Part shown: positions 3,819 to 19,616 of the stretch, in pieces | How the letters are laid out: each line of letters starts with the position of its first letter | How positions within the stretch are numbered: the first letter of the stretch is position 1 | Origin: an uncultured Bacilli bacterium | GTDB lineage: Bacteria > Bacillota_I > Bacilli_A > RF39 > UBA660 | Reading direction: 5' to 3' | DNA length: 50,949 nt | Assembly: GCA_947623665.1 (NCBI GenBank) | Contig: CANQHJ010000002.1 | Location: 1-50,949 of the forward strand | Made by a program: the position numbers and the translations under genes | Notes under the pieces: generated by a model | Databases searched by the model: none | Seen by the model: only the letters and a program-made list of their open reading frames with translations | What the model was told of the DNA's origin: nothing

Positions 3819-5229
3819 AAAAGAAAAGATTACTATCATAATATGTTTATTTTTGATAGGAATTTTATGTTTTATAAATATAAAAGCAGGAATAGATCCA
3901 GATTATTATTGGCATATAAAAGCTGGAAGATTTATGCTTGAGCATGGAGTTATTTTAAAAAGTGATGTTTTTTCTTGGGTTAGTGATATAACAAATGCTT
4001 ATTGGATGTCTCATGAATGGCTATTTGAAGTATTGATTGCATCTTTAGCTAATATATTTCCAAAGTATCATGTTTTAATTTATACTTTTTTTCTGTTTGG
4101 TATTTTACTTTTTGTATTATTTTTTATGAATAAAGATAAATGGCTTAAAAATGTTTTATTTACTTTGATTTGGTTTACTATTTCTATTGCATTTTTTATG
4201 CCTTTTGTACTTCCTAGACCACAACTTTTTGATTTTATATTTTTGGCATTTTGTTTTTATTTACTTTATGATTTAAAAGAAAAAGAAAATTCTAAAAAAA
4301 TATATTTTATGCCTATTATTTCTCTTGTGTGGGCTAATATTCATGGTGGTTCTTCTAACATTCCTTATATTTTAATTTTAATTTTTATAATTGCTGGTTT
4401 ATTTAATTTTAATTGCTCTCATCTTGAAAGTAAAAGATTATCTAGAAAACAATTAAAAAAATATTTTATAGTTTTTATACTTTGTATTTTAGTTATTATT
4501 ATAAATCCTCATGGTATTAAGATGCTTTCTTATCCATATGTTAATATGGCAGATAGTTTTATGCTTGAGACTATTACAGAATGGGCTCCAACTAATTTTA
4601 ATAAAAGTTATCATATATTATTTTATATATATTTTAGTATTAATCTTTTAGTTATACTTACTAGTAAGAAAAAGTTAGAATTTACAGATTTATGTATTTT
4701 AGGTTTTACTTTGTTTTTAGGCTTTAAAAGTGTTAGATTTTGGATTTTCTTTTGTATTGCATCTTTTTCTATAATATGTAATTATATACCTAATTATAAA
4801 ATTAAAAAAAATGATGAAAATTATATTTTATTATTAGTTATTTTACTTATTACTTTATCTTTGAGTAGTTATAATAAAACATTTAAAAATATAGAGAAAA
4901 AAGAATTGTCAACAAAAATTATTAGTTATTTAAAAGATGTTAAGCCAAAAAGACTTTATAATTATTATGATTATGGAGGATATCTTATTTATAATAATAT
5001 AGAAGTTTTTATTGATGGTAGAGCAGATTTATATTCAAAATATAATTATGAAGATGCTTATAGATTATCTAAGTTAAGTGGTAATTTTCAAAAGATAATA
5101 GATAAATATAATTTTGATTATTATTTAGTTAATAAAAATTCTGGTTTAAGTAATTATTTAAAATTGAGTAATAACTATGATTTAGTTATGAGTGATAAAA
5201 AAGTATCTATATACAAAACAAAAGAGTAG
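3802..5229 (+). CDS. Polytopic membrane protein, putative GT-C-fold glycosyltransferase-like
   Basis: 475 aa with about 11 hydrophobic segments. An acidic motif GIDPDYYWH follows TM1, where GT-C enzymes carry their catalytic Asp. The ORF overlaps the recX stop by 17 nt. Function is inferred only. Confidence 0.45.
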   Translation: MKSFIKKEKITIIICLFLIGILCFINIKAGIDPDYYWHIKAGRFMLEHGVILKSDVFSWVSDITNAYWMSHEWLFEVLIASLANIFPKYHVLIYTFFLFGILLFVLFFMNKDKWLKNVLFTLIWFTISIAFFMPFVLPRPQLFDFIFLAFCFYLLYDLKEKENSKKIYFMPIISLVWANIHGGSSNIPYILILIFIIAGLFNFNCSHLESKRLSRKQLKKYFIVFILCILVIIINPHGIKMLSYPYVNMADSFMLETITEWAPTNFNKSYHILFYIYFSINLLVILTSKKKLEFTDLCILGFTLFLGFKSVRFWIFFCIASFSIICNYIPNYKIKKNDENYILLLVILLITLSLSSYNKTFKNIEKKELSTKIISYLKDVKPKRLYNYYDYGGYLIYNNIEVFIDGRADLYSKYNYEDAYRLSKLSGNFQKIIDKYNFDYYLVNKNSGLSNYLKLSNNYDLVMSDKKVSIYKTKE

Positions 5230-5247
5230 GTTTTCTACTCTTTTATT
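5221..5247. terminator. Bidirectional terminator between convergent genes
   Basis: AAGAGTAG (5222-5229), loop GTTTT, CTACTCTT (5235-5242), flanked by A- and T-runs. Confidence 0.6.
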
Positions 5248-6253
5248 GATTTGTTTCTTGAGTGTTTGATGAATTTGATATTTGGTTATTTACATATTCT
5301 TTATATTTTTTCTTTAAATTTGAATCTTTAAATGTAACTTTTTTCTTTTCTCTGTAATCTCTTAGAGTTTTATAATATAGTGTTGAATCATTATCTAATT
5401 TATCTTCAACTATTTTTTTAATTACATCATTTTTTACTTTTTTCAAAGTAGGTTTTTTCTTTTGTTTTTCTTTTAGAATGATATGATATCCATATTGTGA
5501 TTTTACTGGTTCTTCAGTGAATTTTCCTACTTCTAGGTCTTTAGCAGCTTTAAAGAAATTTTCATCGAAGTTGTCATCTGAGTTGAAGTATCCTAGTTCT
5601 CCACCTTCTTTAGCAGTACCAGTATCATCTGAATGTTTTTTTGCAAGTTCTTTAAAATCTTTACCATTTTTTAATTCACTAATTATTTCTTCTGCTTCTT
5701 CTTTTGCTTCTTTATCAGCTTTTTCTTTATCTTCATCACTCATATCATCATTTGTTTCAACATTTATTAAAATATGTTTTGCTTTGATATCTCCAATAAT
5801 GTTTTCTTTGTAGTAAGCATCGATTTCTCCATCTCCAACTTCATCTTTTAGATAATTGTTTACTGCTTGATTTCTTTTGTATTCAAGTGAAAGCATATCA
5901 CGAAGTTCATCTTCATCATCTACTCCAAAATATTGTTGTAATACTGTTTTCCATTGTGATTCATCAGACCCGTATTGTGATTTCATTTGTGTTATTTGTT
6001 GTTCAACTTGTGTTGTTTCTTCTTTTGTTGTTTTTACATCTTTTTCAAGCAATTCTTGGTCAATTAAATCAACTAGCATACTTACACCATATTTATCACA
6101 TAGTTTTTTGTAATAAGTATCAGATGATATTTTACTACCACTCATAGTTACAGCAGCTTTTTCTCCATTTTTTAAAGTTACATTTCCACATCCAGTAGTA
6201 AAGCATGTTAAAACAAGTAAAACACTTACACTACCAATTAATTTTTTGTTCAT
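5243..6253 (-). CDS. prsA: Foldase lipoprotein PrsA (parvulin-type peptidyl-prolyl isomerase)
   Basis: Signal peptide with a lipobox-like TTGC. Parvulin motifs KAKHILI, GGELGYF and SQYGYHII are present. RBS GGAGGAGG. Confidence 0.85.
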   Translation of the reverse strand: MNKKLIGSVSVLLVLTCFTTGCGNVTLKNGEKAAVTMSGSKISSDTYYKKLCDKYGVSMLVDLIDQELLEKDVKTTKEETTQVEQQITQMKSQYGSDESQWKTVLQQYFGVDDEDELRDMLSLEYKRNQAVNNYLKDEVGDGEIDAYYKENIIGDIKAKHILINVETNDDMSDEDKEKADKEAKEEAEEIISELKNGKDFKELAKKHSDDTGTAKEGGELGYFNSDDNFDENFFKAAKDLEVGKFTEEPVKSQYGYHIILKEKQKKKPTLKKVKNDVIKKIVEDKLDNDSTLYYKTLRDYREKKKVTFKDSNLKKKYKEYVNNQISNSSNTQETNQ

Positions 6254-6398
6254 AATTTCCTCCTCCTGAAATTCATAATTATCATATCAAAAAATTGTTA
6301 ATAGTGCAAATCTTTATTTTATCTGGATATATATAATCACACAATTTAACCTTTTACCATAAAATAATGTGAATACCAAAAAAAAGGAGGAAAAGCCT

Positions 6399-6479
6399 AT
6401 GGGTAGTTATGTATCATCATCAGCAATTGTTTTAGTATTATTTATTTTATTAGTTATCTTACTAGGTGCTTATATTTAA
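6399..6479 (+). CDS. Tiny transmembrane peptide, YjcZ-like (26 aa)
   Basis: My own translation: MGSYVSSSAIVLVLFILLVILLGAYI. Strong RBS AAGGAGG with 8-nt spacing. It resembles the 'tiny TM' sporulation peptide family (YjcZ, TIGR01732-like). It is absent from the ORF track. Confidence 0.6.
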   Translation: MGSYVSSSAIVLVLFILLVILLGAYI

Positions 6480-6497
6480 TTTTAAGGAGGTGTAATT

Positions 6498-6611
6498 ATG
6501 GCTTGTGAAAATAATAATACAAATACTAATCGTTGTGGAGGAGGATATATTATAATCATTGTATTATATATCTTACTTGCAATTATTTTAGGAGGAGTTG
6601 TTAGTTGCTAA
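6498..6611 (+). CDS. Tiny transmembrane peptide, YjcZ-like (37 aa)
   Basis: My own translation: MACENNNTNTNRCGGGYIIIIVLYILLAIILGGVVSC. RBS AAGGAGG. A Gly-rich stretch followed by one TM is typical of YjcZ-like peptides. Confidence 0.6.
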   Translation: MACENNNTNTNRCGGGYIIIIVLYILLAIILGGVVSC

Positions 6612-6668
6612 TAGCTCTTTTTCTTTTTATTAAAATATGTTAAAATATAGTAAGTAAAGGAGAATTAT

Positions 6669-7529
6669 ATGAAGAAATTTAAAAAAGTTTTATCTATAAT
6701 TATTTGTGTAATACTTTTTTTCTTAATTAGTGCAGATGTTTTTTTAATATCTATTAAGAATATGGCAAATGTGGGTTTTGTAAATAATGTTTTGGATGAT
6801 ATTGATGTTTCTAGTACTGTACATGATTTTAGAGAAAGTGGTGGAACAATAGGTGAAGTAATTGATGAATTGTATGAAAGAGCAGAAGTTCATGGATTTA
6901 GTGAAGAACAAGTTGATAAAGTAGTCGGTAGTGATGTAACAAAAGAGATAATTGAACGTTATGCTGATTCTATGATTAACGATTCTAAAAGTATAAGTGA
7001 TGAAGATGTTGAAAAAATCATTGAAAATAATGTTGATGATATTATAGATAATTCAAATGGAGTTTTAAAGAAAGAAGATAAAAGTGAACTTTTGAGGGCA
7101 GCAGATACTTGGTCTGAGGCTATTACAGAAAATCTTCCTAATAAAGATGAATTAAAAAAAGCAATGAATATGGATGAAAGTAAAAATGAAAGAATTTCTT
7201 TGACAATGCCTATTATTGTAATGATAGTTATAACTGTTATATTGTTAGGATTAGTAATTTATCTTGCTTGGGATAAGTTTAAATGGGTATTATATACTGG
7301 TGTTACTATAATGGTATCTACTATTCCTATGTTTTTATTAGTAGTACTTTTTAAAATTCTTTCATCAGCTAAGCTAGATGATTATGTAATAAGTAATATT
7401 TCAGGTCCTTTATTTTCAAAAGCATCTGGTGTAATGCTTACTTCATCTTTGATATGTTTAGTTTTTGGAGTAATAGAAATAGTGGTATATATATTTTTAA
7501 AAAAGAATATGAAAAAAGAAGCTAAATAA
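6669..7529 (+). CDS. Membrane protein of unknown function
   Basis: 286 aa with an N-terminal TM, an acidic about 150-aa soluble region and about 4 C-terminal TMs. RBS AAGGAG. Confidence 0.7.
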   Translation: MKKFKKVLSIIICVILFFLISADVFLISIKNMANVGFVNNVLDDIDVSSTVHDFRESGGTIGEVIDELYERAEVHGFSEEQVDKVVGSDVTKEIIERYADSMINDSKSISDEDVEKIIENNVDDIIDNSNGVLKKEDKSELLRAADTWSEAITENLPNKDELKKAMNMDESKNERISLTMPIIVMIVITVILLGLVIYLAWDKFKWVLYTGVTIMVSTIPMFLLVVLFKILSSAKLDDYVISNISGPLFSKASGVMLTSSLICLVFGVIEIVVYIFLKKNMKKEAK

Positions 7530-8589
7530 TTAGTTTCTTTTCTTTTGTTAGATTATTATTTTTAGTTGGAGATTCCAATAAAAAGATCTTTTTGTTGGTA
7601 AAATCTATTTGTATGTCTGTACCTAATGGTAAAATACCAATAGGATTAGCATGGCCTATATTAATATTATACATTACTGGTAAATTTTCTTGATTAAATT
7701 CTTTTAGTACTTTTTTATAAACTTCTTTATATTCTTCATAATATTTTTCTTCTTGAGGTTTACCTATTATAATACCTTTTATGACATCAAATATTCCTTG
7801 TGCTCCTAAATTACGAAGATAATATGTTATTAGATTAGGAGATGGTTTTTCTTCACTTGTTTCTAATAATAGTATTTTATCAGTCCATTCTTCTTTTGTT
7901 GGCCAAATTTCAGTACCAATTATCATTGGAAAGACATCGATACAGCCACCTAATAATTGTCCTGTTACTATTCCAGAACCTTGTATTGTTTCGTATCCAT
8001 GTTCATCTTTAATAAGTTTTTTAGTTATATTAATGTTTTCTGTTTTCCATGGAACAAAGTCCTTTGACCACATTTTGCTTGATTTGATTTCGTAATTCTT
8101 GCAATCTTTAAATAATATGTTTTCAACAGCATTTTTGGTATATTCAAACATATTGCCATATTCACCAAATTCACACATTATTGATGGACCATAAAAAGAT
8201 GTAATACCTGCTTTATGCATCATGAAGTGATTGACTGTTGTATCGGAGTATCCCATAAATATTTTGGGATTGTTTTTAATTATTTGATAGTCAATATAAG
8301 GTAATAATCTTATAGCATCATCTCCACCAATAGCACAAAAAATCCCTTTAATAGTTTTATCTTGAAAAGCATCCATTAAATCTTTTGCTCTTGCTTCTGG
8401 ATGATTATATATAAATTCACTTCCTTTTAAGGCATTTGGCATTGTGATTACTTCTAATCCGAAGTCATTTTCTAATCTATCTTTTGCAATATAATATTTA
8501 TGAATTAAATCTTTATCACCTAATCCTCCCCAAGAAAGACTTACGATTGCAATTTTATCTTTTTCTTGCAACATTTCTGGTTTAATCAT
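7522..8589 (-). CDS. LD-carboxypeptidase / MccF-like serine peptidase (S66 family)
   Basis: 355 aa with a nucleophile motif GYSDTT and a C-terminal IGHANP His motif. Size fits the long MccF-like S66 subgroup. Confidence 0.8.
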   Translation of the reverse strand: MIKPEMLQEKDKIAIVSLSWGGLGDKDLIHKYYIAKDRLENDFGLEVITMPNALKGSEFIYNHPEARAKDLMDAFQDKTIKGIFCAIGGDDAIRLLPYIDYQIIKNNPKIFMGYSDTTVNHFMMHKAGITSFYGPSIMCEFGEYGNMFEYTKNAVENILFKDCKNYEIKSSKMWSKDFVPWKTENINITKKLIKDEHGYETIQGSGIVTGQLLGGCIDVFPMIIGTEIWPTKEEWTDKILLLETSEEKPSPNLITYYLRNLGAQGIFDVIKGIIIGKPQEEKYYEEYKEVYKKVLKEFNQENLPVMYNINIGHANPIGILPLGTDIQIDFTNKKIFLLESPTKNNNLTKEKKLII

Positions 8590-8608
8590 AATTAGTTACT
8601 CCTTAATT

Positions 8609-9004
8609 TTAATTTGTAAGTTTTTTAAATACTTCATCAAGTTCTATTAAAATGTCTTTATTAAATTTATTTGTAAGATTATCGTTTTTATATCTTGGTG
8701 TTAAGTGAATATGAAAATGTTTAATATCTTGTCCAAAATCATTATTTTCAACTATTGTAAGACCTTCACAATTTAGTTTTTCTTTTAATAATGGATATAT
8801 TTTTTCTCTTGTTAAATTTAGAGAATGTGTAATTATTTTTTCATCTACATCACAAATGTTATTATAATGTTTTTTTGGTATTATTAATAAATCTCCATTA
8901 GTTGATGGATTAATATCTAAAAATACTTTTACTAATTCATCTTCATATACTGTTTTAGAAGGTATTTCTCCTTTTACAATTTTACAAAATAAGCAATCTT
9001 CCAT
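8609..9004 (-). CDS. HIT-family nucleotide hydrolase/transferase
   Basis: 131 aa with the histidine triad HFHIHLTPR and an N-terminal CLFCKI motif. Confidence 0.9.
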   Translation of the reverse strand: MEDCLFCKIVKGEIPSKTVYEDELVKVFLDINPSTNGDLLIIPKKHYNNICDVDEKIITHSLNLTREKIYPLLKEKLNCEGLTIVENNDFGQDIKHFHIHLTPRYKNDNLTNKFNKDILIELDEVFKKLTN

Positions 9005-9016
9005 TTTTCTTCCTCC

Positions 9017-9769
9017 TTAATAATTATATTTTTTTAATATTTCTTTTTTATTATCTTTAATTGCTGGGACTAATTCATTTAAAATAGATTCTTTTATTAA
9101 TGATACTTTTAAATCTTCTATTTTAAAACTTTCTCCAGATAGTTTTGGATTAGTAATATAAAAATCATATGATATAGGATTAAATTTTTGTTCTTGTACA
9201 GCTTTGTTAAATCCTATAATAGAAGAATTGACATCATCATATGTCCAATTGTTTATAATTAATTCTCCTTCTATTTCATATATATTTAATTGTTTATAAT
9301 TATTAGAATTAATTATATCTTCTTTTATACTAGGATTAAAGTCATCTAAGTCTTTATTTATTTTTATTTTTAGAGTTTCATACGATGGATTATGTTTTTT
9401 ATTTAAGTTTTGGAATTCTTTTGTTAGTTTTTTTTCTATTTTGTTTAAAAGACTTCTTCCTTTTTTATAATCTTTGTTATAAGTACTTGATATTTTTTTG
9501 TTTTTATAAGTTACTGTAAAGTATAAATCTTTATTTTCTTTATTAGTAATTTTTGTTTTAAAGCAACTACATTTAGTAATGTATTTTGTTTTTCCTAGTT
9601 CTATATCTTCATTTTTATAATTACTTTTTACATATGTAGTTATTTTCTTTTTAGCATCTGGTAGTTTTTTCATATTTATTTTTTCGTTCATAATTATAAT
9701 AGCAAAACTAAGTAAAAAGAAAATAAATAAAAATCCCATACTATAAGTTAATCTATCCTTTTCATTCAT
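9017..9769 (-). CDS. Membrane-anchored Lys-rich hypothetical protein
   Basis: The ORF track starts at 9859. The internal ATG at 9769 (MNEKDRLTYSMGFLFIFFLL...) places a single N-terminal TM sensibly. No family was recognised. Confidence 0.55.
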   Translation of the reverse strand: MNEKDRLTYSMGFLFIFFLLSFAIIIMNEKINMKKLPDAKKKITTYVKSNYKNEDIELGKTKYITKCSCFKTKITNKENKDLYFTVTYKNKKISSTYNKDYKKGRSLLNKIEKKLTKEFQNLNKKHNPSYETLKIKINKDLDDFNPSIKEDIINSNNYKQLNIYEIEGELIINNWTYDDVNSSIIGFNKAVQEQKFNPISYDFYITNPKLSGESFKIEDLKVSLIKESILNELVPAIKDNKKEILKKYNY

Positions 9770-9968
9770 ATAAATCACACTCAAATTTATTGTATCTAAA
9801 AAATCGTATAAAGGCAATAAAAAGGGAATCTTTTGATTCCCAGAACATGAATTCAGCAAATATTCACAATTTTATTATGTAAAATAAATTTGTTTTTTAT
9901 TCAAAATATCTTGTTTTGAATTTTATAATATGTTATCATTAATTTAGAATAATAGGTGGTGGCTAGAA

Positions 9969-11396
9969 ATGAATATACAAAGAGGTTTAGTAAAAGATTT
10001 AGGATATGAAGATACTGAATGTACTTATGTTACAGGAGTTGATGGTGTTCAATATTACTTTGTACAAGGAACAACTTTAACAGATGGGTTGTATGTTGCA
10101 ACTCCTAATGTAAAAGAAGCAGTTGGACATGAGTCATATTCTACACTTGGTGTAATTGATGAAAACACTAATGTAATAATTCCTTGTAATAATAAGCGTA
10201 TTGAATTAGTTGCAGATCGTTTTCTTTTGGTTGAAAAGAATGAAGTAGAAGGAATTGATGTTAAAGCATCTCTTGCTGTTAAGGATGATCCTACTCAAGC
10301 AAGTGCTTATAATAATGATTCATTAAATATTAAGCGTGCTATGGAAAATCAAATGGGATCTGAGGGAGTATTTATTTTTGATGATATGTTCTCTGAGGCT
10401 AATTTGTATGATTTTACTGGTAAGAAGATTTTAGGAGATGATTCTACTGGGTTTAGTTTTATTGGACAAGTAGGTAATGATTTATATTTACATACTATAA
10501 ATATTCATGATTCAATTAAAGTTATTAAAACGCCAGTTACTAATGAAGAAGAGCCAGCTGAACCTATTGCACCAGCACCTGATGTTATTGCACCTACAAC
10601 TTTACAAACTGATGTTTCTGAAGAAGAAAGTACATCATCACCTGTTGTAAGTGATAATTTTAATATTCCAACACCACAACCAGTTGTATCTGATGATTTG
10701 TCTGGAATGGGAAATAATAGTTTTGGTACTGATAATCTTGGAGTAAATGATAATGCTGATGTTTCTATTCCAACTGATGTTACACCAACTGCTGTTCCAA
10801 ATCCTGATATTAATCCAACACCAGTTGTACCTACTGAGCCTGTTGTAAGTGATACTTTACCAACTGAGGTTTCTCAAACTGAAGAGATTAGTGCTATTGA
10901 TAAGTATTTAGATCCTGAAGATGAAAAGGAAGATAGTGTTGCTAGTGTTCAAGAAGTACCTAGTATAGTTCCTACATCACATGAGAAGCCAGGTGTTAAA
11001 AATGCTGTTTATGATGAGGCAGTTGAGGCTATTAAAAATTTAGTTGATAAAAATAAAAGATTAGAAAATGATATAGAAAGTAAGGGGGTAAGGATTAAGG
11101 AATTGGAAATTGATAATAAAGATTTTGCTAAAACAATAAAAAATCAAAAGGAATTGATAGAAAAATTAGAAAATGAAAAACAAGAGCATTTACTTGAAAT
11201 TAAACAAAATAGAAAAAATATTGAAACTTTAGAGGCAGAAAAGAAGGAGTTTTTGAAAACTATAGAAAGTCAAAGAATAAGAATAGAAGAGCAAGAAAGT
11301 AAACTTAAAGCTCAAGATGAACAACTTACTCAACATGAATCTGGTAAAGAAGAGTTAGTAAGACTTTTAGAAAATGTTGGTGAAGTTTTAGATTAA
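9969..11396 (+). CDS. Hypothetical tripartite protein: globular N-domain (WG-repeat-like), Pro/Thr/Val-rich linker, C-terminal coiled coil
   Basis: 475 aa with no signal peptide. YSTLGVIDENTNVIIPCNNKRIELVADRFLLVEKN resembles a WG-containing repeat. The motif PVVSD occurs three times in the linker. Heptad-like KELIEKLENEK... occupies the last about 130 aa. Confidence 0.65.
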   Translation: MNIQRGLVKDLGYEDTECTYVTGVDGVQYYFVQGTTLTDGLYVATPNVKEAVGHESYSTLGVIDENTNVIIPCNNKRIELVADRFLLVEKNEVEGIDVKASLAVKDDPTQASAYNNDSLNIKRAMENQMGSEGVFIFDDMFSEANLYDFTGKKILGDDSTGFSFIGQVGNDLYLHTINIHDSIKVIKTPVTNEEEPAEPIAPAPDVIAPTTLQTDVSEEESTSSPVVSDNFNIPTPQPVVSDDLSGMGNNSFGTDNLGVNDNADVSIPTDVTPTAVPNPDINPTPVVPTEPVVSDTLPTEVSQTEEISAIDKYLDPEDEKEDSVASVQEVPSIVPTSHEKPGVKNAVYDEAVEAIKNLVDKNKRLENDIESKGVRIKELEIDNKDFAKTIKNQKELIEKLENEKQEHLLEIKQNRKNIETLEAEKKEFLKTIESQRIRIEEQESKLKAQDEQLTQHESGKEELVRLLENVGEVLD

Positions 11397-11400
11397 GTAT

Positions 11401-11430
11401 AAAACATCTCTTGAAGGAGATGTTTTCTTA
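11401..11430 (+). terminator. Rho-independent terminator
   Basis: AAAACATCTC (11401-11410), loop TTGAAG, GAGATGTTTT (11417-11426), then CTT. Confidence 0.65.
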
Positions 11431-11461
11431 ATATAAATAATATAGGAGGTGTTTTTCTATT

Positions 11462-11761
11462 ATGGATATGATTAGTTTTATAATTGAAAGCATAGATGGT
11501 TATAGTTATATATTAAAAAGTAATGCAAAAAAAATTAGAAGAGATATAAAATTTTATGATTTAGATAAAGAGTGTATGCCAGAGGTTGGAGATAAAATTT
11601 TAGTTAATCAGAATTTTATTTTGTTAGAAAGTGATGTAGTTATTAGATATGGAAATATGGATTCTCCTTATGGAAAGAGGATATCAAATATTAAAGATGA
11701 TGATTTATTGGTATTAATTAAAAATACGAAAAAATATTATTTGAAAAGAATTTATGGTTAG
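11462..11761 (+). CDS. Small protein A1 (99 aa), paralog of 14871-15158; unknown function
   Basis: RBS TAGGAGGTG. It shares with A2 the pattern I.ES.D.Y.Y.L.......I.F.DLD, VND/NQNF, YG..D..YG..I.....DLLVL and a C-terminal YLKR[IF]YG. Confidence 0.7.
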   Translation: MDMISFIIESIDGYSYILKSNAKKIRRDIKFYDLDKECMPEVGDKILVNQNFILLESDVVIRYGNMDSPYGKRISNIKDDDLLVLIKNTKKYYLKRIYG

Positions 11762-11770
11762 GTGATTTAA

Positions 11771-13498
11771 ATGAGAAAAGGAAAAAAAGATGATTATGGA
11801 ATTATAAAAAGTAAGTATGGTGAAAAAATGGCTCAATTATGTAGAACTTTATTTCCAGAAATATTAGATGTTGATGGATTACTTCCTAAGGTTCTTATGG
11901 ATACTTTTTATCCTAGTAGAGATGTATATAATGCTATTATGTATAACGATTTAAAAGAACAGTTTAAAGATTTAATATTTTTTAAATCTGGAATAGATGA
12001 GGTAGTTAAAAAAGAAGTTGCTACTGATAAAACTCCTTTTGAGCTTATGGAAGAAGAAGGTTATACTTTATATGAATGTCATACTTATGAGGATATTTTA
12101 GAATTTAAGAAGTATTATTCTTATGGAGAAATACTTTGTACTTTTGATGATCCACAAAGAATTGATGAGTGCCATGTGTTTTTTGCAGTTAAAAATAATG
12201 TTGATGAAATAAAAAGGGAGGATTTTATAAATCCACAAAGAGAAGATGAATATAGTCTTTCTGTTGTTTCTATTCAATTTAATAGAGAGAATTTTCGTGT
12301 ATCTATAAAGTCTAGATATAACCATACTGTTAAAAATCCAGATGCAACTTATGGTAATGATTTGGATAAACTTGCTAAAGGATTAAAATACTCTTTTGAG
12401 AAAGTATATGGTTTCAAAAGAAAAATAGATGTTAGTGAAGATGATTTTTGGGAAGATTATAACTTTGTAAAAGCTGATGATGGAAGATTTTACTTATTTA
12501 ATCATTTTGATTTTTTAAACGATATATATATTTGTCCAAATAATATGATAATTAAAAACGGTATCCCAAAACAGTTACCACCAGAAAAATTTACAATTAT
12601 AGATAGTCAGTATATACTTGATTTAAGAACAGGTCAAATGTGGAATTATGATGGAAAAAATGATAGTTTTTTGGATACTATTCAAAATGTAGAAAGTTAT
12701 AAGATGGAAAAAGTTGAAGGTGGTAAAAAAATTACATATACCGTTAAAGATGGTGAAGATATTGAGATAGTTATTAATAAAAATAATAATATTGTTAAAT
12801 ATAAAAATAATAATATTATTGAGATAGGGGATAGATTTTTGTTTTCTAATGAAGAGTTAGAAGAGTTAGAAATAAAAAATGTTATAAAAATAGGGGATGA
12901 TTTTTGTCATTACAATAATGGTTTAAAAGAACTAGAATTAGATAATGTTTTACAAATAGGTGATTATGCATTAACTAGCAATACTGTTATGGAGAAGTTT
13001 AAAGCTGATAAATTAATAAAAGTTGGAGATGACTTTCTATGTAAAGATTTTGCTTTGCGCTTTTTGAATCTTCCTAATTTAGAAAAGCTTTCGGAAGGTT
13101 GTTTTTATCAATGTGAAAATTTAGAAGTATTATATGCTTTTAAATTAAAGAAGATAGAAAAAGAGTGTTTAACATATGCTAGTAAACTAAAAAAACTTTA
13201 TGTACCTAATTTAGAAGAAATAGGTAATGATGTTCTTACATATAATGATGAACTTTCTACTTTTTTTGCTCCAAGGTTATGTAATATTGGGGAAGATGTA
13301 CTTTATTGTAATACTACATTAGAATTTGCTGATTTTTCAAGTTTATTATACTGTGAAGATGGCTTTTTAAATAATCATCCAAATATAAGTAAATTTTCTT
13401 TTCCTAATTTAATAATGTGTAGTTTTTTATTTAGGTATTTATCTGAAAAATCTATTTCTATATTTAATAGGAATGATAAAGGTGATAGAAAAATGTAG
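11771..13498 (+). CDS. Large protein L1 (575 aa): conserved unknown N-domain + BspA-type leucine-rich repeats
   Basis: No signal peptide. The N-terminal about 340 aa are paralogous to L2 (YGE.MA..CR, FYPSR, LCTF.D, IKREDF, REDEYS, KNP.A....LD). The C-terminal part holds about 8 LRR_5-like units (IGD.F.....L..L.L.N...IG...). The RBS TAGGTGA overlaps the A1 stop. Confidence 0.75.
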   Translation: MRKGKKDDYGIIKSKYGEKMAQLCRTLFPEILDVDGLLPKVLMDTFYPSRDVYNAIMYNDLKEQFKDLIFFKSGIDEVVKKEVATDKTPFELMEEEGYTLYECHTYEDILEFKKYYSYGEILCTFDDPQRIDECHVFFAVKNNVDEIKREDFINPQREDEYSLSVVSIQFNRENFRVSIKSRYNHTVKNPDATYGNDLDKLAKGLKYSFEKVYGFKRKIDVSEDDFWEDYNFVKADDGRFYLFNHFDFLNDIYICPNNMIIKNGIPKQLPPEKFTIIDSQYILDLRTGQMWNYDGKNDSFLDTIQNVESYKMEKVEGGKKITYTVKDGEDIEIVINKNNNIVKYKNNNIIEIGDRFLFSNEELEELEIKNVIKIGDDFCHYNNGLKELELDNVLQIGDYALTSNTVMEKFKADKLIKVGDDFLCKDFALRFLNLPNLEKLSEGCFYQCENLEVLYAFKLKKIEKECLTYASKLKKLYVPNLEEIGNDVLTYNDELSTFFAPRLCNIGEDVLYCNTTLEFADFSSLLYCEDGFLNNHPNISKFSFPNLIMCSFLFRYLSEKSISIFNRNDKGDRKM

Positions 13499-13533
13499 AT
13501 TTAAATTATTCTTTTTAGAAAGGTATGATATGT

Positions 13534-14874
13534 ATGACTAATGAATTAAAAAAGATAAAAAGAAAATATGGTGAAGATATGGCTAAGTTTTGTCGTGCTT
13601 TTCTTGCTCCTATTTTAGAACATGAGGGTCTACTTTATGAGATACTTATGGATAACTTTTATCCTAGTAGAGAATTATATAAAGATATTAAAGATAATAA
13701 TTTATGTGGAGAATTTATTAGTTATATTCATGGGCTTGCTGATATTGAACAAGAAAGAATAATTACTGATAAAACTGTTGAAGATCTTACAAAAGATGCA
13801 GGATATTCTGTGTTTAATCCTAAAACGATAGAGGAATTACAATCAATGAAAAAGTATTATGCAGAAGAAGAGGAACTTTGTACATTTAAAGATTCTAAAA
13901 GAATAGAAAACTCTATTATTTTCTTTTTTATAAAAGACGATATAGATTCTATTAAAAGAGAAGATTTTCCTAAAGCAACAAGAGAAGATGAATATTCTTC
14001 ATCTTTAGTTTGTGTTCAATATGATATAGATACAAAAGAACTTAAACTAATTGTTACTAGACGTAATCATGGCTCTAAAAAAGATATTGAAAATGGTGGA
14101 GAAATTAAAAATCCTAATGCTGCATTTGATTGTAATTTAGATAATTTTATTCCTGGACTTACTTGTGCTATGGAAAAAGATTATGGTTTAAGGCCAAAAA
14201 AACCTAGTGATTTTTTTGAAATACCTGGTTATATAGTAGCTCATGATGGTAAATTTTATAAATATAATTATAGTATGGATTCTTTATATTTTTGTAGTGA
14301 TAATGTAATTATAGATCATGGAGAAGTAAGGAAAATGCCATCAGAGAAATTTATTGTTATGGATTATTATCTTTTTGATTTAAGAAGTGGTAATGTATGG
14401 CTTTTATATGATAAAAGTGGAATAAAAGATTGTTTTCCTGATACTATAAAAGATATTGAAGATATAAAGATTTCTAATGATGGTAAGCAGGGGAAGACTA
14501 TAGAACTTAAAACAAGAAACAAAAAAGATATAGAGATTATACTTGATAGTAGAAATAGAATTATTTCTTATAAAAATGATGATATTGATGAAGTAGGAGA
14601 TAACTTTATGTTTTTTAATAATAATTTAGAGTCAATTGAATTATCTAATGTTAGAAAGATTGGGGATAATTGTTTGGATTTAAATGAGGTTGCTAAGAGA
14701 GTTGTTGTTCCTAAAATAGATAGTATAGGAGATAATTTTTTAATTACTAATACTGCTTTAAGAGATATTTATCTTCCAGAAGATGTATCTTTAGGTAAAA
14801 ATTGTTTTTTTTGGAATGATTTCTTGAATATTCATAATATGAGAGATGAAGAAAGAGGTAGTATAAAAAGATGA
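13534..14874 (+). CDS. Large protein L2 (about 446 aa): paralog of L1 with a shorter LRR region
   Basis: Same N-domain motifs as L1 but only about 4 LRR units. ATG 13534 is better spaced from GAAAGG than the track start at 13525. The stop TGA overlaps the A2 ATG (ATGA). Confidence 0.75.
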   Translation: MTNELKKIKRKYGEDMAKFCRAFLAPILEHEGLLYEILMDNFYPSRELYKDIKDNNLCGEFISYIHGLADIEQERIITDKTVEDLTKDAGYSVFNPKTIEELQSMKKYYAEEEELCTFKDSKRIENSIIFFFIKDDIDSIKREDFPKATREDEYSSSLVCVQYDIDTKELKLIVTRRNHGSKKDIENGGEIKNPNAAFDCNLDNFIPGLTCAMEKDYGLRPKKPSDFFEIPGYIVAHDGKFYKYNYSMDSLYFCSDNVIIDHGEVRKMPSEKFIVMDYYLFDLRSGNVWLLYDKSGIKDCFPDTIKDIEDIKISNDGKQGKTIELKTRNKKDIEIILDSRNRIISYKNDDIDEVGDNFMFFNNNLESIELSNVRKIGDNCLDLNEVAKRVVVPKIDSIGDNFLITNTALRDIYLPEDVSLGKNCFFWNDFLNIHNMRDEERGSIKR

Positions 14875-15158
14875 TAAAATTAATTGTAGATAGTGTTGAT
14901 AGATATCATTATGTTTTAAGAGATAAAGATAATAATAAATATAAGTTTGATATAGAATTTCATGATTTGGATAAAGACCCTGAAGTAGAAGATGTTTTCT
15001 TTGTAAATGATAATTTTTTAAGACTTAGGAATACTTTTCTTAGTTATGGTAGTATAGATGAGAGGTATGGTAGGAAAATTAAGAGTTCGAAAGATGAGGA
15101 TTTATTAGTGTTGTTTCATGATGGAGAAAATATTTATTTAAAAAGATTTTATGGATAA
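14871..15158 (+). CDS. Small protein A2 (95 aa), paralog of A1
   Basis: Translationally coupled to L2 by a 4-nt ATGA overlap. It shares the A1 motifs and the C-terminal YLKRFYG. Confidence 0.7.
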   Translation: MIKLIVDSVDRYHYVLRDKDNNKYKFDIEFHDLDKDPEVEDVFFVNDNFLRLRNTFLSYGSIDERYGRKIKSSKDEDLLVLFHDGENIYLKRFYG

Positions 15159-15180
15159 ATACCTTTTGGTATTTTTTCTT
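15157..15180 (+). terminator. Weak Rho-independent terminator after A2
   Basis: AAATACC / GGTATTT short AT-rich stem with loop TTTT, followed by TTTCTTTT. Confidence 0.4.
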
Positions 15181-15250
15181 TTAAAAAAAGATATTTTGTG
15201 TTATTATATGAGGAAATTGTAAAAGAAATAGAAAATTTTTTCTTGATTTG

Positions 15251-15259: not shown

Positions 15260-15284
15260 ATAAATGTTTGAGAGGGTTGATAAT

Positions 15285-16049
15285 ATGCTTGTAATTAAAG
15301 ATTTAAAAGTTAAGGTATCTGATACTGATAAAGTAATACTTGATAATTTTAATTTATCTATTAATGAAGGTGAAGTACATGTTATTATGGGTCCTAATGG
15401 GACAGGTAAGAGTACTTTAGCAAAAACTATACTTGGACATTATAAGTTTGAAGTAGAATGTGGAGATATAGAGTTTTATGGAAAGAAACTTAATAGTCTT
15501 AGTACTGATGAGAGAGCTAAGTTAGGTATTTTTCTTGCTATGCAGGATCCTACTGAAATAGAGGGTGTTAGTAATAGTGAATTTTTACGTACTGCTTTAG
15601 GAGAGGTTAGTGGTAGTAAAGTAAATTTATATGAATTTATTACTGCTATTGAGAAGGCATATGATGATGTTTCTTTAAATAAAGATATGTTACATCGTTT
15701 TGTTAATAAAGGTTTTAGTGGTGGAGAAAAGAAGAAGAATGAAGTATTACAACTTAAGATGTTAAAACCTAAACTTATAATACTTGATGAGTTAGATTCA
15801 GGACTTGATGTTGATAGTTTAAAGATAGTTTGTAAAAATATTAATGATTATTTAAAAGAAAATAAAAAAGCATCTGTTCTTATTATTACTCATTATCCTA
15901 GAATTCTAGATTATTTAAAACCTGACTATGTTCATATTATGAAAAATGGTAATATAAAACAAACTGGGGATTTAAGTTTAGCAAGTTTTGTTGAAAAAAA
16001 TGGATATGATGGTATAAACGCTGTGGAAGAGCGTGATTTAAATGAATAG
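15285..16049 (+). CDS. sufC: Fe-S cluster assembly ATPase SufC
   Basis: Walker A GPNGTGKST, signature FSGGEKKK, Walker B LIILDELDSGLD. ATG 15285 is preceded by GAGAGGG; the track start at 15264 lies upstream of the RBS. Confidence 0.9.
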   Translation: MLVIKDLKVKVSDTDKVILDNFNLSINEGEVHVIMGPNGTGKSTLAKTILGHYKFEVECGDIEFYGKKLNSLSTDERAKLGIFLAMQDPTEIEGVSNSEFLRTALGEVSGSKVNLYEFITAIEKAYDDVSLNKDMLHRFVNKGFSGGEKKKNEVLQLKMLKPKLIILDELDSGLDVDSLKIVCKNINDYLKENKKASVLIITHYPRILDYLKPDYVHIMKNGNIKQTGDLSLASFVEKNGYDGINAVEERDLNE

Positions 16050-16647
16050 AATAACAGTAGGAAAGAATTTTAGTGAGGAAGTTTATTTAGATAGTAAGGA
16101 TAGTAAATATTATATTGAAGTAGAAGAGAATGCAAGTCTAAAAGTATATCATTATGCTGTTGATAAAAGTTTTGAGGTTGAAATACATTTAAAAGGAGAA
16201 AATGCTAGTGTTGAGTATTTTTATAGTACATTAAATAGAAAAGATAATTATTTTAGGATAAAAGTTTTTCATGATGTTTCTAATACTAAAAGTAATTTAG
16301 TTAATCATGGAGTAAATATTTTAGATAAAAAATTAAATTTTGTTGTGGATGGTATTATACCTAAAGATGTAGTAGGATGTGTTTGTAGTCAAGATAATAA
16401 GATTATGAATTTATGTGAAGGTAAGAGTTCTATCGCACCTAATCTTTTAATTGATAGTCATGATAATATTGCTAATCATTCTGCTTATATTGGAAACTTT
16501 AAAGAAGATGTTTTATTTTATTTAAAGAGTAGAGGTATTTCACAGAAGATTGCTACAAAAATGCTTACTTTAGGATTTTTAGTACATGATTTAGAAAATG
16601 AAGAAGAGATAAAAGACTTTCTAAAATATATAGATGAATTAAGTTAG
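16042..16647 (+). CDS. sufD: SufD-like Fe-S assembly protein, short form (201 aa)
   Basis: It sits between sufC and sufS and overlaps the sufC stop by 8 nt. The C-terminal part resembles the SufB/SufD core (LFYLKSRGIS...A..ML..GF). It is about half the usual SufD length. Confidence 0.7.
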   Translation: MNRITVGKNFSEEVYLDSKDSKYYIEVEENASLKVYHYAVDKSFEVEIHLKGENASVEYFYSTLNRKDNYFRIKVFHDVSNTKSNLVNHGVNILDKKLNFVVDGIIPKDVVGCVCSQDNKIMNLCEGKSSIAPNLLIDSHDNIANHSAYIGNFKEDVLFYLKSRGISQKIATKMLTLGFLVHDLENEEEIKDFLKYIDELS

Positions 16648-16658
16648 GAGGTGTATTT

Positions 16659-17855
16659 ATGAATAGAGAAGACTTTCCAGTGTTAAAAAAAGATATTGTA
16701 TATTTTGATAATGGTGCTACTACATTAAAACCAAAATGTGTTATTTCAAAAATGGATGATTATTATTTGAATCATACTTCTAATATACATCGTGGTGAAT
16801 ATGATTTTTCTATTATTACAAATAGGCTTTATGATGAGGTTAGAGGTTTAGTTAAACACTTTATTAATGCAGAAAGTGAAAAAGAAATTGTTTATACTAG
16901 TGGTACTACTGAGAGTATGAATATGATTGTTTTTGGTTTTATGATGCAACATTTGAAAAAGGGAGATGTTGTTTTAACTGATAGAGCTGAACATGCCTCT
17001 AGTGTTTTACCTTGGCTTGTTTTACAAAAAAGAATAGGTATTGAAGTTAGATATGTAGATTTAGAAGATGATTATTCTCTTAGTGTAGAAAAATTAAAAA
17101 AACAAATAGATGATAAAGTAAAAGTTATCTCTATTGCACACATTAGTAATGTTGTTGGAGATATTAGAGATACTTATAGTATTGGGAAGATTTGTAAGAG
17201 TAAGGGAATTTATTTTGTAGTGGATGCTGCTCAAGCTGCTTCTCATATTCCTATTGATGTTTTAAAAGATAATATTTCTTTTATGGGATTTTCAGGACAT
17301 AAGATGGCTGGTCCAACAGGAGTTGGAATACTTTATGGTAAATATGATTTATTAGAAGAGATGGAACCTTTAAAATATGGTGGAGGAATGAATCAAGAGT
17401 TTGAGTCAAGTGGGGATTTTGAATTGAAAGAAGTTCCTATTAAGTTTGAAGCAGGAACACCACCAATTGCTGAGGTTATTGGACTGGGTGAGGCTATTAG
17501 GTATATAGAGTCTATTGGAGTTGTTAATATTCATAAGCATGAAGTGGAACTTAAGAGATATTTAGTAAGTAAATTAAAAAATATACCTAATATAATTTTA
17601 TATAATGAAAATAGTGAAAGTGGTATTTTAGCATTTAATATAGATGGAGTTTTTGCTCAAGATACAGCAATATTTTTAAATCATTATAATATTTATGTTA
17701 GAGCAGGAAATCATTGTACTAAGATGTTAAAAGAAGAGATGAATATTAGAAATACTTGTCGTATAAGTATGTATTTATATAATAATAAAGAAGATGTTGA
17801 TAGACTTGTTGATGCTTTATTAAAAAGTGAAGATATATTTAAAGTGGTGATATAG
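16659..17855 (+). CDS. sufS: Cysteine desulfurase SufS (class V aminotransferase)
   Basis: PLP-lysine motif FSGHKM and catalytic Cys in RAGNHCT. 398 aa. Confidence 0.9.
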   Translation: MNREDFPVLKKDIVYFDNGATTLKPKCVISKMDDYYLNHTSNIHRGEYDFSIITNRLYDEVRGLVKHFINAESEKEIVYTSGTTESMNMIVFGFMMQHLKKGDVVLTDRAEHASSVLPWLVLQKRIGIEVRYVDLEDDYSLSVEKLKKQIDDKVKVISIAHISNVVGDIRDTYSIGKICKSKGIYFVVDAAQAASHIPIDVLKDNISFMGFSGHKMAGPTGVGILYGKYDLLEEMEPLKYGGGMNQEFESSGDFELKEVPIKFEAGTPPIAEVIGLGEAIRYIESIGVVNIHKHEVELKRYLVSKLKNIPNIILYNENSESGILAFNIDGVFAQDTAIFLNHYNIYVRAGNHCTKMLKEEMNIRNTCRISMYLYNNKEDVDRLVDALLKSEDIFKVVI

Positions 17856-18284
17856 ATGGATAGTAATTTAAGACGTGAGATTATACTTGAGAATTATCAA
17901 AATCCTGTGAATAGAGGACTTGTTGATGATGATAGTTATATTTTAAAGAATACTAATAATGATAGTTGTATTGATAATATAGATATTATGGTTAAAGTTG
18001 AAGACGGAATACTTAAAGATATTCGTTTTGATGGAGAAGCGTGTGCTATATCTACAAGTGCAACTTCTGTTATGATTAATAGACTTCTTGGTAAGAGTGT
18101 AGAAGAGGCAAAAGAGGTTTTGAAAAACTATCAAAATATGATTAATGAAGCAGAATATGATAAAGAGTTACTTGGAGAGTTAAATGTTTATGATGAGGTT
18201 AGTCGTCAACCAAATAGAAAAATGTGTGCACTACTTCCTAGTAATGCTATTAGTAGTATTTTAAAAATGTTAGAAGAAAAATAA
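17856..18284 (+). CDS. sufU: Sulfur-transfer / scaffold protein SufU
   Basis: 142 aa with conserved Cys positions (NDSCID, GEACAIS, MCALLP) typical of SufU/IscU-like proteins. The ATG directly abuts the sufS stop. Confidence 0.85.
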   Translation: MDSNLRREIILENYQNPVNRGLVDDDSYILKNTNNDSCIDNIDIMVKVEDGILKDIRFDGEACAISTSATSVMINRLLGKSVEEAKEVLKNYQNMINEAEYDKELLGELNVYDEVSRQPNRKMCALLPSNAISSILKMLEEK

Positions 18285-18302
18285 CGACAGGAGTGATGAT
18301 AG

Positions 18303-19616
18303 ATGGAAGTCGTCGGTTTAAGTCGTGATAAGATAAAAAAAATATCACAATATAAAAATGAAGATAAATGGATTTTAGATTATCGCTTAAAAAGTTATGA
18401 TTTATTTAAGAATTTTCCTATGCCTAAATTTGGTCCAGAGATTAATCTTAATTTTGATGATATTATTTATTATAAAGCAGATGATAGGGATTTAGAGATT
18501 AAGAAGGATTGGAATCAGGTATTAAAACCTATTCAAGATGAATTTAGGGATCTTGGTGTTATTGAGAGTGAGGCTCATATGGATGGTATGGGTATTCAAT
18601 ATGAGAGTGAAGTAATATATCATAATATGTTAGATGAGATAGAAAAAAAGAATGTAATTTTTACATCTATTGAGGATGCTATGAAGAAGTATCCTGATCT
18701 TGTTAAAAAGTATTTTGGTAAGATTGTCTCTAATGATGATAATAAATTTGCTTCTTTAAATAGTGCAGTTTTTAGTGGAGGTAGTTTTATATATATTCCA
18801 CCTAATACTACTCTTGATAGACCACTTCAAAGTTATTTTCGTATTAATAGTCGTAATATGGGACAGTTTGAGAGAAGTTTAATTATTGTTGATGATAATA
18901 GTTCTCTACATTATATAGAAGGTTGTACTGCACCTACTTATGCTGAGAGTTCTTTACATGCTGCGGTTGTTGAGATTTATGTTGGAAAGAACAGTAAATG
19001 TCGTTATTCTACTATTCAAAACTGGGCTGTTAATGTTTATAATTTAGTTACTAAAAGAGCATTAGTTGATGATGGTGGAACAATGGAATGGATAGATGGT
19101 AATATTGGAAGTAATGTTACAATGAAATATCCTTGTTGTGTGTTAAAAGGTGATAAATCTAGTGGTACTTGTGTAACTATTAGTGTTGCAACTAATAATC
19201 AAAATCAAGATACGGGTGCTAAAATGATACATTTAGGAAAAGACACTCATAGTAATATTATTTCTAAGAGTATTGCAAGAAGTGGAGGAAATGCTACTTA
19301 TCGTGGAAAAGTATTTATTGATAAAGATGCTTCTAATAGTGAGGCAGTAGTTAAATGTGATACTTTAATAATTGATGATAAATCTAAAAGTGATACATAT
19401 CCTATTAATATTTGTTATAATCATGATAGTAATATAGAACATGAGGCTACTGTTTCTAAGATTAGTGAAGATAAACTTTTCTATATGAAAAGTCGTGGTA
19501 TAAATGAAGAGAAAGCAGTAGAATTAATAGTTTTAGGATTTATTGAAAAGTTTAGAGAAGAGTTACCTGTTGAATATGCAGTTGAATTAAATCAATTAAT
19601 TAAGAGAAACTTGTAA
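18303..19616 (+). CDS. sufB: Fe-S cluster assembly scaffold SufB
   Basis: 437 aa with a SufB-type core (GGSFIYIPPN, HYIEGCTAP, LFYMKSRGI). Confidence 0.9.
   Translation: MEVVGLSRDKIKKISQYKNEDKWILDYRLKSYDLFKNFPMPKFGPEINLNFDDIIYYKADDRDLEIKKDWNQVLKPIQDEFRDLGVIESEAHMDGMGIQYESEVIYHNMLDEIEKKNVIFTSIEDAMKKYPDLVKKYFGKIVSNDDNKFASLNSAVFSGGSFIYIPPNTTLDRPLQSYFRINSRNMGQFERSLIIVDDNSSLHYIEGCTAPTYAESSLHAAVVEIYVGKNSKCRYSTIQNWAVNVYNLVTKRALVDDGGTMEWIDGNIGSNVTMKYPCCVLKGDKSSGTCVTISVATNNQNQDTGAKMIHLGKDTHSNIISKSIARSGGNATYRGKVFIDKDASNSEAVVKCDTLIIDDKSKSDTYPINICYNHDSNIEHEATVSKISEDKLFYMKSRGINEEKAVELIVLGFIEKFREELPVEYAVELNQLIKRNL

Follow-up and report, generated by a model that had tools for sequence, protein, structure and literature searches.

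A duplicated module of a small protein gene and a soluble leucine-rich-repeat protein gene in an uncultured Bacilli bacterium

The four-gene locus

The window analyzed here is a stretch of 50,949 nt from an uncultured Bacilli bacterium (contig CANQHJ010000002.1 of assembly GCA_947623665.1), and at positions 11462–15158 it carries a module of two small genes (A1 and A2) and two large genes (L1 and L2). An open reading frame (ORF) listing confirmed the order given in the first-pass annotation of this DNA, A1-L1-L2-A2, with all four ORFs on the forward strand. A1 and A2 are about 45–47% identical over their full length (E = 1e-25), and L1 and L2 are 37% identical across ~430 aa (E = 1e-89). Both pairs had already been called paralogs, and every motif quoted in support of that call is present in the A and L alignments. 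The four genes are two old copies, one of A-L type and one of L-A type, of a single self-contained module, standing side by side.

A1 (11462–11761, +) encodes a 99-aa small partner protein whose C-terminus reads YLKRIYG-stop. It is followed by L1 (11771–13498, +), which encodes a 575-aa soluble protein with three successive parts: a conserved N-terminal domain (N-domain; residues 1–300, 11771–12670) with a fold that has no known match, predicted beta strands (residues ~300–345), and leucine-rich repeats (LRRs) into which these strands run. Repeat phasing resolved nine 22-residue units of the BspA/TpLRR type in L1 (residues ~346–549, 12806–13417). L2 (13534–14874, +) encodes a 446-aa paralog of L1 in which the same N-domain is followed by four 22-residue units, phased in the same way (14593–14856). 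The earlier count of four units in L2 therefore stands, while that of about eight in L1 becomes nine. A2 (14871–15158, +) encodes the 95-aa paralog of A1. The mechanically called L2 ORF starts at 13525 and is 449 aa long, with an in-frame ATG at 13534 (M4). The latter is more likely the true start, because the spacing of the ribosome-binding site (RBS) AAAGG (13519–13523) fits it and the gene calls on near-identical contigs agree.

Each small gene is tightly coupled to its large neighbor, as had been noted. The gap between A1 and L1 is 9 nt, with the RBS AGGTGA lying over the A1 stop codon, and the stop codon of L2 shares the sequence ATGA with the start codon of A2. The unit as a whole is bounded by terminator-like hairpins, again in agreement with the first-pass annotation. 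The first (11401–11426, +) has an 11-bp stem and a folding free energy (dG) of −11.7 kcal/mol (z = −4.64; 0 of 200 shuffled sequences equaled its fold); it closes off the upstream 475-aa gene and sets the 5' boundary of the four-gene unit. The second (15153–15182, +, with the hairpin proper at 15153–15178) has a dG of −8.7 kcal/mol (z = −2.28) and continues into the U-tract UUUUUUCUUUU; it overlaps the A2 stop codon and is the 3' boundary ahead of the suf operon. A scan of folding energy found no comparable hairpin between L1 and L2. A consensus terminator scan missed both hairpins because it demands three G-C pairs.

Family members and gene neighborhoods

The L family is large. A word-indexed search with the L1 N-domain returned at least 538 proteins without functional names, the sole informative source name being "hypothetical protein". 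An exhaustive HMMER search over 1.84 billion cluster representatives (clusters at 50% identity) returned at least 1259 clusters at E ≤ 1e-3 and 727 at E ≤ 1e-30. The N-domain occupied residues ~1–300 in nearly all of the 150 matches listed, which were 357–821 aa long. Species-representative genomes contained at least 474 relatives, nearly all in metagenome-assembled genomes (MAGs) of uncultured Bacilli, "Tenericutes", "Mollicutes" or Clostridia. The source MAGs came from animal and human guts, and the median GC content of the loci was 26.5%. Two loci (L011 and L070) came from MAGs titled Bacteroidaceae and Muribaculaceae, yet have ~23% GC and carry the L family; these are probably mis-binned contigs of low-GC Bacillota. 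Uncultured low-GC Bacillota are common in animal and human guts and nearly unstudied. Stand-alone L genes were absent from INPHARED phages and PLSDB plasmids, and a literature search for the L and A families yielded nothing beyond general papers on BspA.

We compared gene neighborhoods in 78 species-level fetched loci plus the window (79 sources). A jackhmmer search with A1 and A2 on all ORFs of this set detected 48 A ORFs, A1 and A2 included, every one of them on the same strand as the adjacent L. In an all-against-all clustering, no gene family other than L (143 copies, in 79 of 79 sources) and A (47 copies, in 43 sources) recurred; the cluster third in size was made up of antisense artefacts within the LRRs. 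Within the fetched DNA, 54 gene clusters were complete, and A was present in 33 of them. Their patterns were L (17), LA (13), AL (13), LL (3) and LLA (3), with one each of LLL, LAL, LLAL, ALLLALL and ALLA, the last being the window. The arrays LLLLLLLA and LLALL also occurred in the set. Junctions were short in both arrangements, mostly −4 to +11 nt from A to L and −7 to +34 nt from L to A, and translational coupling of A and L is frequent. In the reciprocal direction, all eight A genes found by the A profile alone had an L-family or LRR_5 gene as their immediate downstream neighbor, and a hidden Markov model (HMM) confirmed the N-domain in all four of the neighbors checked, one of them truncated. 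The proposed adjacency of small and large genes thus extends across genomes.

The proposed 1:1 cognate pairing did not survive this comparison: L genes outnumber A genes by 143 to 47, arrays with several L genes occur, and 17 complete clusters consist of a lone L. The extreme case is a 58-kb contig of which two overlapping stretches (L009 and L039) hold seven L genes each, ~14 in total, with one A detected, so that the family can fill tens of kilobases with tandem copies. Nor is the mirror order, which had been presented as a feature of the locus, a recurrent one, since ALLA was seen in the window alone and the common forms are AL and LA, with 13 clusters each. We also considered a clade of A-partnered L proteins and rejected it: A-adjacent L genes do not form a separate clade, and only the subtype with A upstream clusters. 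No A–L fusion was found among the 150 L matches listed or the 62 A matches. Three loci (L096:4415–5422, L097:2385–3392 and L098:1077–2083) have A followed by a 335-aa L lacking the first ~200 residues of the N-domain, and in L098 this shortened L is broken further into two ORFs; such shortened forms are likely decay products.

Divergence within arrays is uneven along the L protein. Paralogs in one array have N-domains that are 55–92% identical (mean ~75%) and LRRs that are 34–67% identical (mean ~45%), with LRR parts ranging from 107 to 519 aa. Identity between genomes is ~45–50%, compared with ~75% within arrays; from this we conclude that the expansions are recent and specific to lineages and that it is the LRR that evolves fast. 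The window departs from this pattern: the N-domains of L1 and L2 are 39% identical to one another, less than each is to many genes of other genomes. Judged by these sequence identities, L1 and L2 are old paralogs. Several of the nearest relatives of L1 have A upstream, and several of the nearest relatives of L2 have A downstream. Because of this old divergence and the placement of A in the relatives, the mirror is best read as a juxtaposition of the common AL and LA arrangements and not as a designed symmetry; that A and L do not pair 1:1 likewise makes the order incidental. In an abundant species (context of P0013), one L gene is split (L109:4689–7258): a 334-aa N-domain ORF stops just past an A-rich tract, and beyond a frameshift a separate 223-aa ORF encodes the LRR. 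Other samples have intact alleles (P0015 and P0018), a possible on/off polymorphism. No phase-variation or inversion repeats were found around the module in the window.

The surroundings of L clusters are ordinary. A census of 114 flanking genes returned 179 Pfam families of housekeeping type, none in more than four loci, and no enrichment of defense, mobile-element, secretion or cell-wall genes. A conserved third gene, a linkage to Suf and a linkage to the dcw cluster were each considered and dropped, as they are limited to a few related loci and not enriched overall. In two related lineages (L099–L101 and L106–L107), the A-L pair is embedded in the dcw cluster of cell-division and cell-wall genes, flanked by ftsW and murA/ftsQ.

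In the window itself, the flanks comprise an LD-carboxypeptidase, a HIT protein, two orphans and the sufCDSUB operon. The orphan directly upstream of the module (9969–11396, +) is the 475-aa gene mentioned above. Its product has an N-terminal domain, a repetitive linker rich in Pro, Thr and Val, and a C-terminal coiled coil with weak SMC-like matches; the linker is encoded by DNA repeats at 10555–10871, where GC rises locally to 0.335. This gene is not kept beside L genes in the other loci compared. Directly downstream lies the sufC-sufD-sufS-sufU-sufB iron-sulfur assembly operon (15264–19616, +), with an unusually short SufD of 201 aa. Its position next to the module probably reflects shared synteny and not a functional link, because suf genes lie near L clusters in just two other loci (L032 and L072).

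The L and A proteins and their phage relatives

The N-domain of L has no match in Pfam, NCBIfam, PADLOC or PHROGs, and in a sequence profile search of the Protein Data Bank (PDB) with L the LRR part matched alone while the N-domain was left unmatched. We modeled residues 1–345 of L1 with AlphaFold2 from a 52-sequence alignment (predicted local distance difference test, pLDDT, 83.4). The model shows a helical bundle (residues 8–95), a small alpha/beta unit (98–215), short beta hairpins (230–300) and a beta meander that connects to the LRR. A Foldseek search of this model against PDB and BFVD returned no match at E < 0.001, and the top TM-scores were below 0.2. Several specific folds were weighed and set aside. 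A PD-(D/E)xK or Rpb5_N fold was suggested by weak RNA_pol_Rpb5_N matches in five of 52 members, the best at E = 0.058 over 37 residues; it had no support from Foldseek, and no D...(D/E)xK motif is conserved in the right strands. The R-S-E residues of ADP-ribosyltransferases and the triads of papain/NlpC-P60 and transglutaminase proteins, compared by eye with the conserved residues and predicted secondary structure, gave no convincing fit.

Family alignments of the 300-aa N-domain contain about 20 invariant polar residues. Those conserved universally are Cys123, His185, Arg130, Arg157, Arg182, Asp159, Asp191, Ser164, Gln169, Asn184 and Asn196, and a conserved loop reads SIKNRYNH-x-V-x-NPDAT. 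The pattern suggests that the N-domain catalyzes a reaction or binds a ligand, and that Cys123 and His185, surrounded by Arg, Asp, Asn and Ser residues, are candidates for its center. An enzyme-like character had been guessed at before. The guess remains plausible. In the distant phage relatives described below, Cys123 and His185 are kept; Cys24 and Cys255 are not.

Pfam recognizes in L only LRR_5 (PF13306), in the C-terminal parts (47.4 bits in L1 and 27.8 bits in L2, at a cut-off of 27.7). LRR_5 was matched in 28 of 52 relatives at E ≤ 1 and in 51 of 78 at E ≤ 0.001, and the PDB proteins 4fs7 and 4h09, both with LRR_5, matched at E = 1.5e-19 and 6e-12. The repeat period in both window proteins is exactly 22 residues. 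Throughout the family the C-terminal parts are LRR_5-like, save for one DUF285 match and one LysM insertion. The latter, a LysM-like segment at residues ~290–335 of P0205 (Pfam E = 5.6e-07), lies between the beta-rich region and the LRR and hints that this member may bind peptidoglycan. By a 19-residue Kyte-Doolittle hydropathy scan, the measure of localization used here in place of SignalP, neither the four window proteins nor 52 relatives have a signal peptide, lipobox, transmembrane (TM) segment or anchor. The highest 19-residue mean was 1.12 in the window proteins and 1.5 in the relatives, and the N-termini are hydrophilic. This agrees with the first-pass annotation, which had seen no signal peptide or TM segment in the four proteins.

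The A proteins likewise have no match in Pfam (searched also with 63 A relatives), NCBIfam, PADLOC, PHROGs or the sequences in PDB. The A profile returned at least 62 family members, all stand-alone proteins of 87–119 aa and none fused to other domains. AlphaFold2 modeled A1 as a seven-strand all-beta barrel (pLDDT 86.6; predicted TM-score, pTM, 0.79), and Foldseek found no PDB match to this model at E < 0.001. The nearest folds were the OB barrels of proteasomal ATPases (Mpa, PAN and Rpt) and other small beta-barrels, with probabilities up to 0.99, E = 0.009–0.07 and TM-scores of ~0.35–0.40 over ~50 residues at a root-mean-square deviation of ~3 Å. The C-terminus is LKRxYG-stop, with an invariant terminal Gly, in all complete sequences but one. 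At L046:9957–10529 an A gene has lost its stop, and read-through lengthens the product by 95 aa to 190 aa. The C-terminal LKRxYG (window 11741–11758) resembles IKKKYGE, the best-conserved N-terminal motif of L, at L residues 9–18 (11795–11824); the resemblance is not significant (hhalign P = 0.26), and no homology of A to any L subdomain was found. We rejected a ubiquitin-like modifier as a model for A, since the protein is a barrel whose last strand extends to residue 98, has no beta-grasp match and ends in a single Gly. The statement that neither the N-domain nor the small proteins belong to a familiar family thus held through family libraries, PDB profiles and Foldseek searches of the AlphaFold models. 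Of the outcomes that would have spoken against the first-pass annotation on its own terms, namely a known-family match, no co-occurrence of small and large genes, or an insignificant similarity between A1 and A2, none was found.

Distant relatives of L are encoded on seven IMG/VR contigs (L083–L089, 30–68 kb; 25–28% identity, HMM E = 3e-47 to 1e-43). Here the N-domain and following LRR_5 repeats lie in the middle of single giant ORFs of 3550–4025 aa. In L083, the only contig on which neighbors were identified, the giant ORF (3657–14393) lies just upstream of the large terminase gene (PHROG E = 5e-76), whose product is ~30% identical to the terminases of Flavobacterium and Cellulophaga podophages. 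The remainder of the giant ORFs has no Pfam or PDB match, the giant proteins have no TM segment and no DxDxD motif of virion RNA polymerases, and no A-like gene was found near their ORFs. The phage and bacterial versions share IKKKxGE, Arg25, Gly-Tyr97-98, Cys123 (in LCT), Arg130, Arg157-x-Asp159-x-Tyr161-Gly-Thr-Ser164...Gln169 and SIKNRYNH185-x-V-x-NPDAT-F-x-N196-x-L.

Possible functions and known counterparts

A conserved enzyme-like domain, a fast-evolving LRR and relatives in giant phage proteins together point to a function in recognition or conflict. Our tentative preference, to which we give somewhat less than an even chance, is that L is a soluble, LRR-targeted enzyme or binder with a Cys/His center, diversifying as members of a conflict or recognition family do, and that A is an accessory subunit shared among L proteins. 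L would act inside the cell, or wherever it is delivered without a Sec signal, on specific targets: the variable LRR would select a protein or glycan ligand, and the conserved N-domain would act on the ligand so selected. The pattern of diversification would fit a repertoire directed at phage, competitors or the host. A would be a generic subunit (a regulator, chaperone or adaptor) recognizing a conserved part of L, as its good conservation and the sharing of one A among several L proteins suggest; it would not be an immunity protein cognate to one L.

Several observations weigh against this model. No enzyme fold was found for the N-domain, the top PDB match of its model in Foldseek having E = 0.075 and a TM-score below 0.2. 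The Cys/His center is deduced from residue conservation alone, and two further cysteines, Cys24 and Cys255, are invariant in the bacterial proteins and lost in the phage relatives. That A binds L we infer from gene adjacency, and the enzyme activity, ligand and intracellular site ascribed to L are proposals. In 21 of the 54 complete clusters no A lies within reach; A is therefore either not obligatory or encoded elsewhere in those genomes. The ordinary housekeeping flanks, with no enrichment of defense or mobile-element genes, weaken a reading as defense. BspA-type LRRs are classically extracellular, and one L member has the LysM insertion.

The last two points belong to the alternative that fares best, one we consider doubtful: that the L proteins are BspA-like adhesins or antigens, located on the surface or secreted, which leave the cell by a non-classical route and are displayed or released to bind host, mucus or other microbes, with the N-domain as an export or anchor module and A as an export chaperone. 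The LRR_5/TpLRR repeats are typical of surface proteins such as BspA of T. forsythia, and the lineage-specific tandem expansion and fast LRR divergence resemble antigen or adhesin variation. The LysM insertion in one member and the intact and disrupted alleles in one abundant species would also suit an adhesin. Expanded BspA-like families are known in host-associated microbes, with 26 members in Candidatus Mycoplasma girerdii and more than 900 in Trichomonas vaginalis (PMC4206474). However, 23 of the 26 proteins in M. girerdii carry a TM segment at the C-terminus (PMC4206474), unlike L, for which no export or anchor signal was seen in the four window proteins and 52 members. The ~20 invariant polar residues, moreover, look catalytic or ligand-binding and not like an export signal, and no secretion-system genes recur nearby.

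We think it unlikely that L is a sensor and effector against phages or other mobile genetic elements, with the LRR detecting an invader protein, the N-domain acting as the effector and A serving as a regulator or inhibitor that is set free upon detection. Such a role is suggested by the combination of a variable repeat sensor and a conserved enzyme-like domain in a soluble protein, by copy number and presence that differ between genomes, and by the homologous unit in giant phage proteins, which suggests phage–host traffic. Yet A1, L1, L2 and A2 matched zero families of PADLOC-DB v2 at E ≤ 1, the 114 flanking genes contain no defense genes, integrases or mobile-element markers beyond chance, and the family is absent from plasmids and INPHARED phages. 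Arrays of up to ~14 paralogs in very small genomes would also be unusual for known defense systems.

Least probable, and in our judgment very improbable, are cognate 1:1 toxin/immunity or toxin/antitoxin-like pairs in which each A neutralizes its own L: the tight coupling of small to large gene on both sides in the window and the adjacency conserved elsewhere would suit them, but the A:L ratio is ~1:3, one A was detected for up to ~14 L genes, 17 clusters are lone L, A may lie before or after L, neither the N-domain nor A matches a toxin, antitoxin or immunity family in Pfam, NCBIfam or PADLOC, and the variable part of L is its LRR, whereas in polymorphic toxins it is a toxin domain at the C-terminus. 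The lack of a mobile-element or defense-island context and of stand-alone copies in phages and plasmids tells equally against the immunity-like role proposed in the first-pass annotation. Whatever probability remains beyond the model of a targeted enzyme or binder and these three alternatives falls to functions not yet imagined.

A more far-reaching version of the targeted-enzyme model, which we hold to be improbable, is that the N-domain is a new enzyme fold centered on Cys123 and His185 and, with the hypervariable LRR, constitutes an unrecognized intracellular repertoire for target recognition and modification shared by reduced-genome gut bacteria and giant injected phage proteins. If the N-domain were such an enzyme, A could dock or be processed via its invariant free C-terminal RxYG; it could also regulate L by mimicry of IKKKYGE, or be conjugated through its terminal Gly. 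Mimicry or conjugation, if true, would amount to a new kind of protein-targeting system. For the module as a whole, if a function in recognition or conflict is borne out, bacterial biology would gain a domain and a small partner not described before and possibly a new way of selecting targets, along with a handle on how uncultured gut bacteria interact with phages, neighbors or the host.

Four known systems offer points of comparison. Polyvalent proteins, multidomain effectors that are packaged in the virion and injected, have been described as giant proteins whose genes lie next to those of the virion (Iyer, Burroughs, Anand, de Souza and Aravind 2017; PMC5512222). By analogy, the phage relatives of L may be likened to these in the size of their ORFs and, in L083, in their adjacency to the terminase gene. 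The L genes of the window differ: they are stand-alone chromosomal genes for proteins of 446–575 aa and lack the polyvalent feature. Neither LRRs nor the L N-domain is among the domains named in PMC5512222, where "LRR" and "leucine-rich" have zero occurrences.

The A protein, for its part, differs from the OB domains of Mpa, PAN and Rpt in being stand-alone, in its invariant C-terminal RxYG and in having no sequence similarity to them. In design, L resembles the NEL E3 ligases of the IpaH/SspH type, in which target selection by LRRs is fused to a conserved Cys-containing domain and several paralogs occur per genome. Unlike those ligases, L has its conserved domain N-terminal to the LRR, belongs to a different phylum, has a separate small partner and lacks a type III secretion context; no NEL match was found by Pfam in the window proteins or their relatives.

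In kind, L comes closest to an expanded LRR family or to an effector that joins an LRR to a catalytic domain. With the BspA/TpLRR families (T. forsythia BspA, the Candidatus M. girerdii proteins, TvBspA, 4fs7 and 4h09), L shares 22-residue repeats, LRR_5 matches and many paralogs of variable length. It differs from them in its additional ~300-aa N-domain, in having no signal peptide, TM segment or anchor, and in its dedicated small partner gene. Neither the N-domain nor A significantly matches any family or fold in the libraries searched. The LRR part of L is thus an ordinary member of the BspA/TpLRR group, while the N-domain, the small partner and the conserved linkage between them are new.

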